Sequence record: NC_005856.1 | Length of the DNA: 64,000 nucleotides | Origin: Escherichia phage P1 | Direction: 5' to 3' (one strand) | Shown here: positions 48,140 to 48,691 of the stretch, piece by piece | Layout: each line of letters starts with the position of its first letter | Numbering within the stretch: position 1 is the stretch's first letter | Notes under the pieces: model-generated | What the model was told of the DNA's origin: nothing | Databases searched by the model: none | The model's input: only the letters and a program-made list of their open reading frames with translations | Made by a program: the position numbers and the translations under genes

Positions 48140-48156
48140 AATGCTCTAATAAATTT
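48140..48156. promoter_or_regulatory. C1 operator (AATGCTCTAATAAATTT) controlling the c4-icd-ant (immI) operon
   Basis: 16/17 match to consensus; position (~51% of genome) fits the map-unit naming I recall (Op51). Confidence 0.7.
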
Positions 48157-48339
48157 GTATTTTTAAGTCGCGAATGCTATCTTTTCGCATCATATTGACC
48201 TTTTAATCGTTCAGGCTTATAGTTCCACCGTCGTAGCAAATTCTGCGACCGGTTTTGACAGCCTGAATGTTAGTGCGGACAACCGCAGATTTCCGATATT
48301 GCGGTATTTTTGTGTCCGTAAACCGCGTTACGCCCGAAT

Positions 48340-48420
48340 TATGGTGGGGCGTGATGGGGAGGCTTCGGCCTGCTGGTTTCACTAACGCCAGTCTGTCAAC
48401 CCTGTCACGTCCTGCCACCT
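48340..48420 (+). ncRNA. c4: c4 antisense RNA region (approximate boundaries)
   Basis: Segments CGTGATGGGG (48350-48359) and TTTCACTAAC (48378-48387) are complementary to downstream sites CCCTGTCACG (48401-48410) and GTTAGTGAGG (48452-48461), the latter covering the icd Shine-Dalgarno; fits the known cis-encoded antisense mechanism. Confidence 0.45.
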
Positions 48421-48469
48421 GTTTGACAGCGGGTAGCAGGTTGTTAAACCTGTTAGTGAGGCCGTAACT

Positions 48470-48691
48470 ATGGTTAATGCCAATCCTTGCACACGCCCAG
48501 AATTCATCTGGCGTTTCTATTCCTGTAAAAAACACCACTATCACTTCGTTATCGCAGCAACTGAAGACGAAGCACGCTCTCAATTGCCTGATGGCCCCTG
48601 CATTTTTACTGCCCGTTTTTCTACTAACTCGCGCAATTCACTTAGTTACTGGAACCTCCCCTTCTCTGCCGACGTTCAGGGGGGTTTATGA
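48470..48691 (+). CDS. icd: Icd (interference with cell division), 73 aa, overlapping the ant1 start
   Basis: ATG 48470 preceded by GTGAGG; stop overlaps the ant ATG (ATGA). Confidence 0.65.
   Translation: MVNANPCTRPEFIWRFYSCKKHHYHFVIAATEDEARSQLPDGPCIFTARFSTNSRNSLSYWNLPFSADVQGGL

Follow-up and report, generated by a model that had tools for sequence, protein, structure and literature searches.

The region at 48140-48691 of the window (the whole 64,000-nucleotide stretch of Escherichia phage P1, NC_005856.1, that we analysed) is the known c4 circuit of P1 immI, a real feature that adds nothing new to biology. Its best explanation, which we hold to be almost certain, is that the c4 antisense RNA silences the icd-ant antirepressor operon, and nothing that we found contradicts it. 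What changes on a second look is the map of the elements: a stem inside the RNA had been taken for a target site, and both the a'/a2 contact and the upstream sites a1 and b1 had been overlooked. In addition, some 128 natural variants show that two short, freely recombining modules (2 x 7 alleles, in 12 combinations) confer the specificity, and a link from P1 c4 to IsrK and to N15 suggests a testable role for the leader in which a1 and b1 lie.

The immI locus

By megablast, positions 47900-49900 are 100% identical to AF234173.1 over 2001 nt, with coordinates unchanged, and the annotated order of elements is that of P1 immI: sim - Op51 - c4 - icd - ant1/2 - kilA - repL. The window thus corresponds to the initial 64 kb of AF234173.1, in which all the elements of the circuit carry an annotation. 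The system that an earlier note on this DNA had named from the sequence, the immI of P1, where a c4 RNA made on the icd-ant transcript is processed and blocks the icd ribosome-binding site, agrees with GenBank, with the Rfam C4 family and with the literature, in which the circuit has been described (PMC8198154, PMC12197685, PMC8546580). There, c4 is an antisense RNA that acts in trans to repress the synthesis of Ant and forms the basis of P1/P7 heteroimmunity (PMC12197685, PMC8546580); full repression of ant requires C1 and c4 together, and the expression of ant requires that of icd (PMC8198154, PMC12197685, PMC8546580). In a window-wide Rfam search, the families C4 and c4-a1b1, both at this locus, were the sole two RNA matches at gathering level. 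All features described below lie on the + strand.

The operon is preceded by a C1 repressor operator, as the earlier note had it. This site is annotated in GenBank (protein_bind) as Oc4, formerly Op51 (AATGCTCTAATAAATTT, 48140..48156), and departs by one mismatch from the 17-bp asymmetric sequence ATTGCTCTAATAAATTT, which we take to be the operator consensus. With up to three mismatches allowed, this consensus has five matches in the window against 0.36 expected. Two of the others also carry a single mismatch, at 21015-21031 and at 49810-49826, the latter being the annotated Op53 ahead of kilA-repL. Two promoters follow. Promoter P2c4 (P51a; 48155..48183, from GenBank) is overlapped by the C1 operator, Op51 covering part of its -35 element according to the annotation, and was not picked up by a simple consensus promoter scan. 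Promoter P1c4 (P51b; 48195..48223, TTGACC-17-TATAGT), also annotated in GenBank, agrees with the sigma-70 consensus at 10 of 12 positions and was recovered independently by the same scan.

Downstream of c4, the icd gene (48470..48691, GenBank CDS) encodes a cell-division inhibitor of 73 aa that matches the NCBIfam model phage_ICD_like (E = 3.4e-14) and no Pfam model. Its Shine-Dalgarno sequence was placed correctly from the start: GTGAGG (GUGAGG in the RNA) occupies 48456..48461, 8 nt upstream of the ATG at 48470. The start of ant1 overlaps the stop of icd in the tetranucleotide ATGA at 48688-91. The antirepressor gene ant1 runs over 48688..49731 and ant2 lies in the same frame from 48937, both as annotated in GenBank, and Ant1 matches the Pfam ANT/KilAC family (PF03374, E = 1.2e-30). 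According to the literature, icd RNA that is left untranslated is terminated prematurely within icd, in a Rho-dependent manner. Early icd also holds a weak terminator-like hairpin at 48497-48511 (CCAGAATTCATCTGG, then a T-rich tail); it is at chance level, since the terminator scan found one such hairpin where 0.7 would be expected. In phage vB_EcoM-673R5, a deletion of 2 nt in a G-run/T-run just before the icd stop (L008 848-849, corresponding to 48685-86 of the window) turns icd and ant1 into one ORF of 420 codons that is annotated 'Ant1'. This fusion, which replaces the ATGA coupling, could be genuine or could be a homopolymer sequencing error.

The c4 RNA and its target sites

Mature c4 is a 77-nt RNA at 48343..48419 (GenBank misc_RNA), and this placement is shared by the fold and by Rfam: the C4 model (RF01695) matches 48337-48422 over model positions 1-87 of 87, with a score of 68.8 bits where 45 are required. 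The RNA reaches a minimum free energy (MFE) of -42 kcal/mol (z = -4.55) in a structure built from a 17-bp closing stem, whose 5' strand (48343..48359) pairs with its 3' strand (48400..48416), a hairpin capped by UUCG, and a second hairpin; the closing stem is present in the centroid fold as well. Together with the accessibility profile, the MFE and centroid folds give the Rfam C4 layout, a closing stem and two hairpins with a' and b' unpaired. In fact, c4 has only two long accessible stretches, and these are the two specificity determinants. The first is the loop of the second hairpin (48378-86), which contains b' (UCACUAAC, 48379..48386), with an unpaired probability of 0.8-1.0; its role is supported by accessibility, covariation and alleles alike. 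The second is a' (CUGUCAA, 48393..48399), the single-stranded 7-nt joint that leads from hairpin 2 to the closing stem, with an unpaired probability of 0.93-1.0.

Both determinants have targets downstream, on the same transcript and 4 to 40 nt from c4. The target of b' is b2 (GUUAGUGA, 48452..48459, GenBank misc_binding), which overlaps the icd Shine-Dalgarno sequence. All eight positions form Watson-Crick pairs (48379-86 with 48452-59), and two terminal G-U pairs extend the duplex to 48377-86 against 48452-61. This is the contact that had been recognized earlier through its second sequence block, TTTCACTAAC at 48377-86, with the same eight Watson-Crick and two G-U pairs over the Shine-Dalgarno sequence. 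The target of a' is a2 (UUGACAG, 48423..48429, GenBank misc_binding), with seven Watson-Crick pairs out of seven between 48393-99 and 48423-29. The two determinants of c4 thus match two downstream sites, the second of which lies at the ribosome-binding site (RBS) of icd, and this is the pattern of c4-type control.

Two more complements are found upstream of c4. The site a1 (UUGACAG, 48255..48261; 'putative a1' among the GenBank misc_binding features) is complementary to a' at 7/7 positions, and b1 (GUUAGUGC, 48269..48276; again 'putative' in GenBank) is complementary to b' at 7/8, the final base always being mismatched. The a'/a2 pair, a1 and b1 were all absent from the earlier note. The complementarity of a' and b' to these four sites exceeds chance: when the flanks were shuffled 20,000 times with their dinucleotides preserved, the downstream pair of sites arose together once and the upstream pair five times, and all four sites never did (0/20,000). 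Short-duplex energies set cognate pairs cleanly apart from non-cognate ones, with -11 to -12 kcal/mol for cognate b duplexes and about -9 for cognate a duplexes, against -1 to -6 kcal/mol for non-cognate b'/b2 and about -4 for non-cognate a'/a2.

Co-folding, which had been proposed as a check, did not recover these contacts. When c4 was combined with its upstream or its downstream flank in RNAcofold, it stayed folded and no a'/a2 or b'/b2 contacts were predicted, presumably because these contacts cross the closing stem of c4. RNAduplex, for its part, unfolded c4 and flanks altogether into an unrealistic full-length duplex. Co-folding was replaced by accessibility, short-duplex energies and co-variation counts.

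Mode of action

According to the literature, the 5' end of c4 is processed by RNase P, and in P1, c4 supplied from a second replicon is reported to repress an icd-lacZ translational fusion that lacks a c4 of its own. The circuit would operate as follows. Transcription would start from P51a, which C1 controls via Op51, or from P51b, and would yield a transcript that carries first the leader with a1 and b1, then c4, then icd-ant1/ant2. From this operon transcript c4 would be cut as the 77-nt RNA, as annotation and literature have it, and would contact the mRNA twice, a' pairing with a2 just 3' of c4 and b' pairing with b2. Since b2 overlaps the icd Shine-Dalgarno sequence, its binding by b' would leave icd untranslated, a step that we base on the literature. 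Translation of ant1 would be coupled to that of icd through the overlapping ATGA, so that a silent icd would mean no antirepressor, and the repression by C1, with lysogeny and immunity, would hold. The specificity of all this, and hence the heteroimmunity of P1 and P7, comes down to a few bases in a' and b'.

The short distance between c4 and its targets on one transcript would also suit a mechanism that works mainly in cis, in which the a'/b' region, by folding within the unprocessed transcript, masks the icd RBS (and a1/b1) and free c4 plays a secondary part; the homologous locus of Gifsy-1 has in fact been interpreted in terms of alternative cis structures (PMC4825925). We consider such a mechanism unlikely for P1. 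Against it, c4 is described as acting in trans, heteroimmunity being an action on a superinfecting genome (PMC12197685, PMC8546580), and it is annotated as a discrete RNA of 77 nt. The Gifsy-1 mutants also bear on the matter. The numbering of Hershko-Shalev et al. (PMC4825925) is reproduced exactly when the Gifsy-1 sequence is counted from where the isrK model begins, and then G28 and G31 fall in a1 (TTGGCGT, 26-32), C159 and C162 fall in a' (ACGCCAA, 158-164), a2 occupies 192-198, and b2 occupies 222-228, where it abuts the GGAGG of anrP. In the double mutant G28A + C162U, repression was not restored (224 units, vs 4 for the wild type; PMC4825925), which is a better fit to lost a'/a2 pairing than to a cis helix of a1 and a'. 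Action in cis and action in trans are compatible. Since trans action is documented, a switch that works purely in cis is improbable; cis pairing in the precursor may still occur.

Natural variation and specificity

Phage P7, which is heteroimmune with P1, offers the closest comparison. Its c4 locus (AF503408.1) shares the P1 architecture, with ~95% identity over the region and an identical scaffold. Its b' is UCACAAUC and its a' is CUGCUAA, and a1, b1, a2 and b2 are all altered to match: the two phages differ within c4 at 48383/48385 (b') and 48396-97 (a'), and within the targets at 48425-26 (a2), 48453/48455 (b2), 48257-58 (a1) and 48270/48272 (b1). One closing-stem pair, at 48403, is G-C in P7 and G-U in P1. 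Non-cognate duplexes between P1 and P7 are ~5-7 kcal/mol weaker. The expectation that P7 would differ by a few bases in the two blocks first pointed out was thus half right: it differs in block 2, but block 1 is invariant, and the second differing site is a'.

The same picture holds among 15 relatives that we fetched from phage and plasmid collections (P7, D6, JL22, RCS47, SJ46 and others), each of which has both a C4 and a c4-a1b1 match. In their alignment a single scaffold position of c4 varies, 48403 (U/C), where a stem pair changes from G-U to G-C; the closing stem is 100% paired, and the remaining variation of c4 is confined to a' and b'. Under a pseudoknotted model, a'/a2 and b'/b2 form 100% standard pairs in the 15 distinct P1-like sequences, and eight of these pairs show changes on both sides (6/8 in b'/b2 and 2/7 in a'/a2). 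If the 3' partner is shifted by 1-3 columns, only 31-54% remain paired. The upstream pairings a1/a' and b1/b' likewise co-vary in the 15 sequences, bar the last base of b1, which is mismatched throughout.

From IMG/VR, a pattern scan brought in ~120 further loci, and the resulting census comprises 128 loci with full flanks, representing 62 distinct sequences. These hold two a' alleles and seven b' alleles (among them those of P1 and P7, the D6-type, UCAUUCGU and UCAUGUAC) in 12 combinations, and the targets follow them almost without fail: a2 and a1 each match at 7/7 positions in 128/128 loci, b2 at 8/8 in 127/128, and b1 at 7/8 in 127/128. All four targets are fully matched in 126 of the 128; of the remaining two loci, one has its b2 shortened and the other its b1. 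Since a1 and b1 co-vary with a' and b' in 127/128 loci, we conclude that they are selected to pair with c4. In D6 and D6-like plasmids (L003, L011-L015), a near-identical a1/b1-c4-icd cassette follows repL and precedes a Rha/Roi-type gene (names as given in the record annotations), not the KilAC-type ant1. The RNA module can apparently be combined with different downstream regulators.

In distant c4 RNAs (Stx phages, a Yersinia phage, a Salmonella plasmid, N15 and Gifsy-1), a' and b' are unrelated in sequence to those of P1. Nevertheless, in a search that covered Gifsy-1 and five distant C4 RNAs outside N15, with every loop but b' of Stx2a_1447, nearly all loops had matching sites on both sides of the RNA. 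Their closing stems carry compensatory changes in 14/27 pairs, as a structural helix does, and block 1 is therefore a part of such a helix.

This bears directly on the literal reading of the two blocks, by which CGTGATGGGG would be an antisense segment directed against icd-ant mRNA at 48401-10, and TTTCACTAAC the second such element. Block 1 was correctly located, at 48350-59, and it does have a complement of ten positions (eight Watson-Crick pairs and two G-U), but in the register 48400-09; at 48401-10 only 3/10 positions pair. Both arms lie within the mature RNA (48343-48419), where the MFE and centroid folds alike place them in the closing stem, each base of block 1 having an unpaired probability of <=0.01, so that the pairing is an intramolecular stem and not a contact with a target. 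The arms are also alike in the heteroimmune P1 and P7, apart from the change of G-U to G-C at 48403. With the compensatory substitutions of the distant stems added, an antisense role for block 1 is very improbable, and a' takes its place as the other antisense element beside b'.

That c4 might be a protein repressor, made from the 66-codon ORF at 48267-48467, has next to no chance in spite of the presence of this + strand ORF, of the entry 'c4: CDS' in X15639 and of the hypothetical protein gp42 annotated over c4 in JL22: a 1-nt insertion after 48319 shifts the frame in P7, D6, JL22 and others, c4 varies only in a' and b' with matching changes at non-contiguous sites (a signature of RNA pairing and not of coding), the Rfam C4 match is strong, a title in the literature reads 'The c4 repressors ... 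are antisense RNAs' (PMC8198154), and the frameshifting indel together with the RNA-type co-variation rules the protein out. Protein genes are annotated across C4 in several records, namely gp42 of JL22 (L004 427-597), gene 32 of N15 (L141 1600-1890), an 'antirepressor' of Stx2a_1447 (L017 1077-2228) and the 'c4 CDS' of X15639, and in one record the CDS spans the isrK leader as well as C4. These are probably mis-annotations of an RNA gene.

The upstream leader and its relatives

The leader upstream of c4 is structured. Rfam c4-a1b1 (RF03163) matches 48217..48269 with a score of 51.0 bits (threshold 46.7) and describes two hairpins with a1 in the loop of the second; b1 comes after this a1 hairpin. 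Between b1 and c4, at 48282..48311, the RNA can fold into a further hairpin, ACCGCA / UGCGGU (48282-87 with 48300-05), followed by AUUUUUG, which resembles a terminator of the IsrK type and is nearly invariant across P1-like sequences. It was not reported by a consensus terminator scan, because its loop measures 12 nt and the tool permits 3-8. The leader does not reach the Rfam family isrK (RF01394) itself, as 48230-48311 scores 35.1 bits against a cut-off of 50, and in this sub-threshold alignment the P1 hairpin falls on the terminator stem of isrK. The likeness is one of architecture: two hairpins, and after them a hairpin of terminator type that leads into a U-run.

In the distant loci examined outside the P1/D6 group (Gifsy-1, N15, Stx2a_1447, vB_YpM_41 and others), C4 is directly preceded by an isrK match of full score, with the exception of the second of two tandem C4 RNAs on a Salmonella plasmid, which has no isrK match of its own. 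In Gifsy-1, isrK and an overlapping c4-a1b1 match are followed by C4 (69 bits), an antirepressor-like gene and isrJ. The isrK-'orf45'(STnc1160)-anrP locus of Gifsy-1 is laid out like that of P1, with an a1/b1 leader and terminator (IsrK), a C4 RNA, and a2/b2 sites abutting the RBS of the antirepressor. A processed RNA of ~80 nt has been reported there (PMC4825925), and this 'orf45'/STnc1160 RNA coincides with C4. It therefore looks as if IsrK corresponds to the a1/b1 leader, and 'orf45'/STnc1160 to c4, in a cassette of the c4 type. The two loci do differ in their coupled ORFs: in P1 this is icd, an upstream ORF coupled to ant1, whereas in Gifsy-1 the c4 gene is itself overlapped by 'orf45'. 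As published, the model has the short IsrK activate through alternative mRNA structures (PMC4825925). The words 'phage P1' have 0 occurrences in that paper, where the comparison is with seqA/CI of P4 (PMC4825925), and a 2025 review lists IsrK and c4 separately (PMC12197685).

The immA locus of N15 also belongs to this comparison. It has an isrK-type leader, a C4-family RNA (78.8 bits) and an Ant gene two CDSs downstream, and its a' and b' sequences differ from those of P1. This anti-immunity locus is controlled by a small processed RNA, and published accounts place an icd in the operon. The N15 leader hairpin, homologous to the P1 element, is annotated as a rho-independent terminator. According to Ravin et al. 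1999, the N15 RNA reportedly acts mainly by premature transcription termination and not by a translation block. In the satellite phage P4, CI RNA with seqA/seqC controls replication genes by way of transcription termination. It offers a parallel in that it is processed from the leader of its own operon and has complementary sites on both sides (PMC4825925).

Given this likeness to isrK and N15, and given the near-perfect co-variation of a1/b1, it is possible, if not quite probable, that a1 and b1 of P1, with the hairpin and U-run that follow, would form a leader through which c4 attenuates transcription, a decoy that titrates c4, or both; that P1 immI, N15 immA and Gifsy-1 would make up one family; and that the IsrK mutants could be re-read in terms of c4 logic. 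As far as one can go from sequence comparison, two variants can be envisioned. In attenuation, c4 bound to the nascent leader would promote termination ahead of c4-icd-ant, which would amount to autoregulation. As a decoy, the short terminated leader RNA would titrate c4 and act as an anti-antisense.

The tandem arrangement mentioned above is found on the Salmonella plasmid pRM11060-2 (L016 687-1420), where the two C4 RNAs lie at 938-1025 and 1289-1376. The single isrK match lies upstream of the first. The two RNAs differ in a' and b', and each of them has its own downstream sites.
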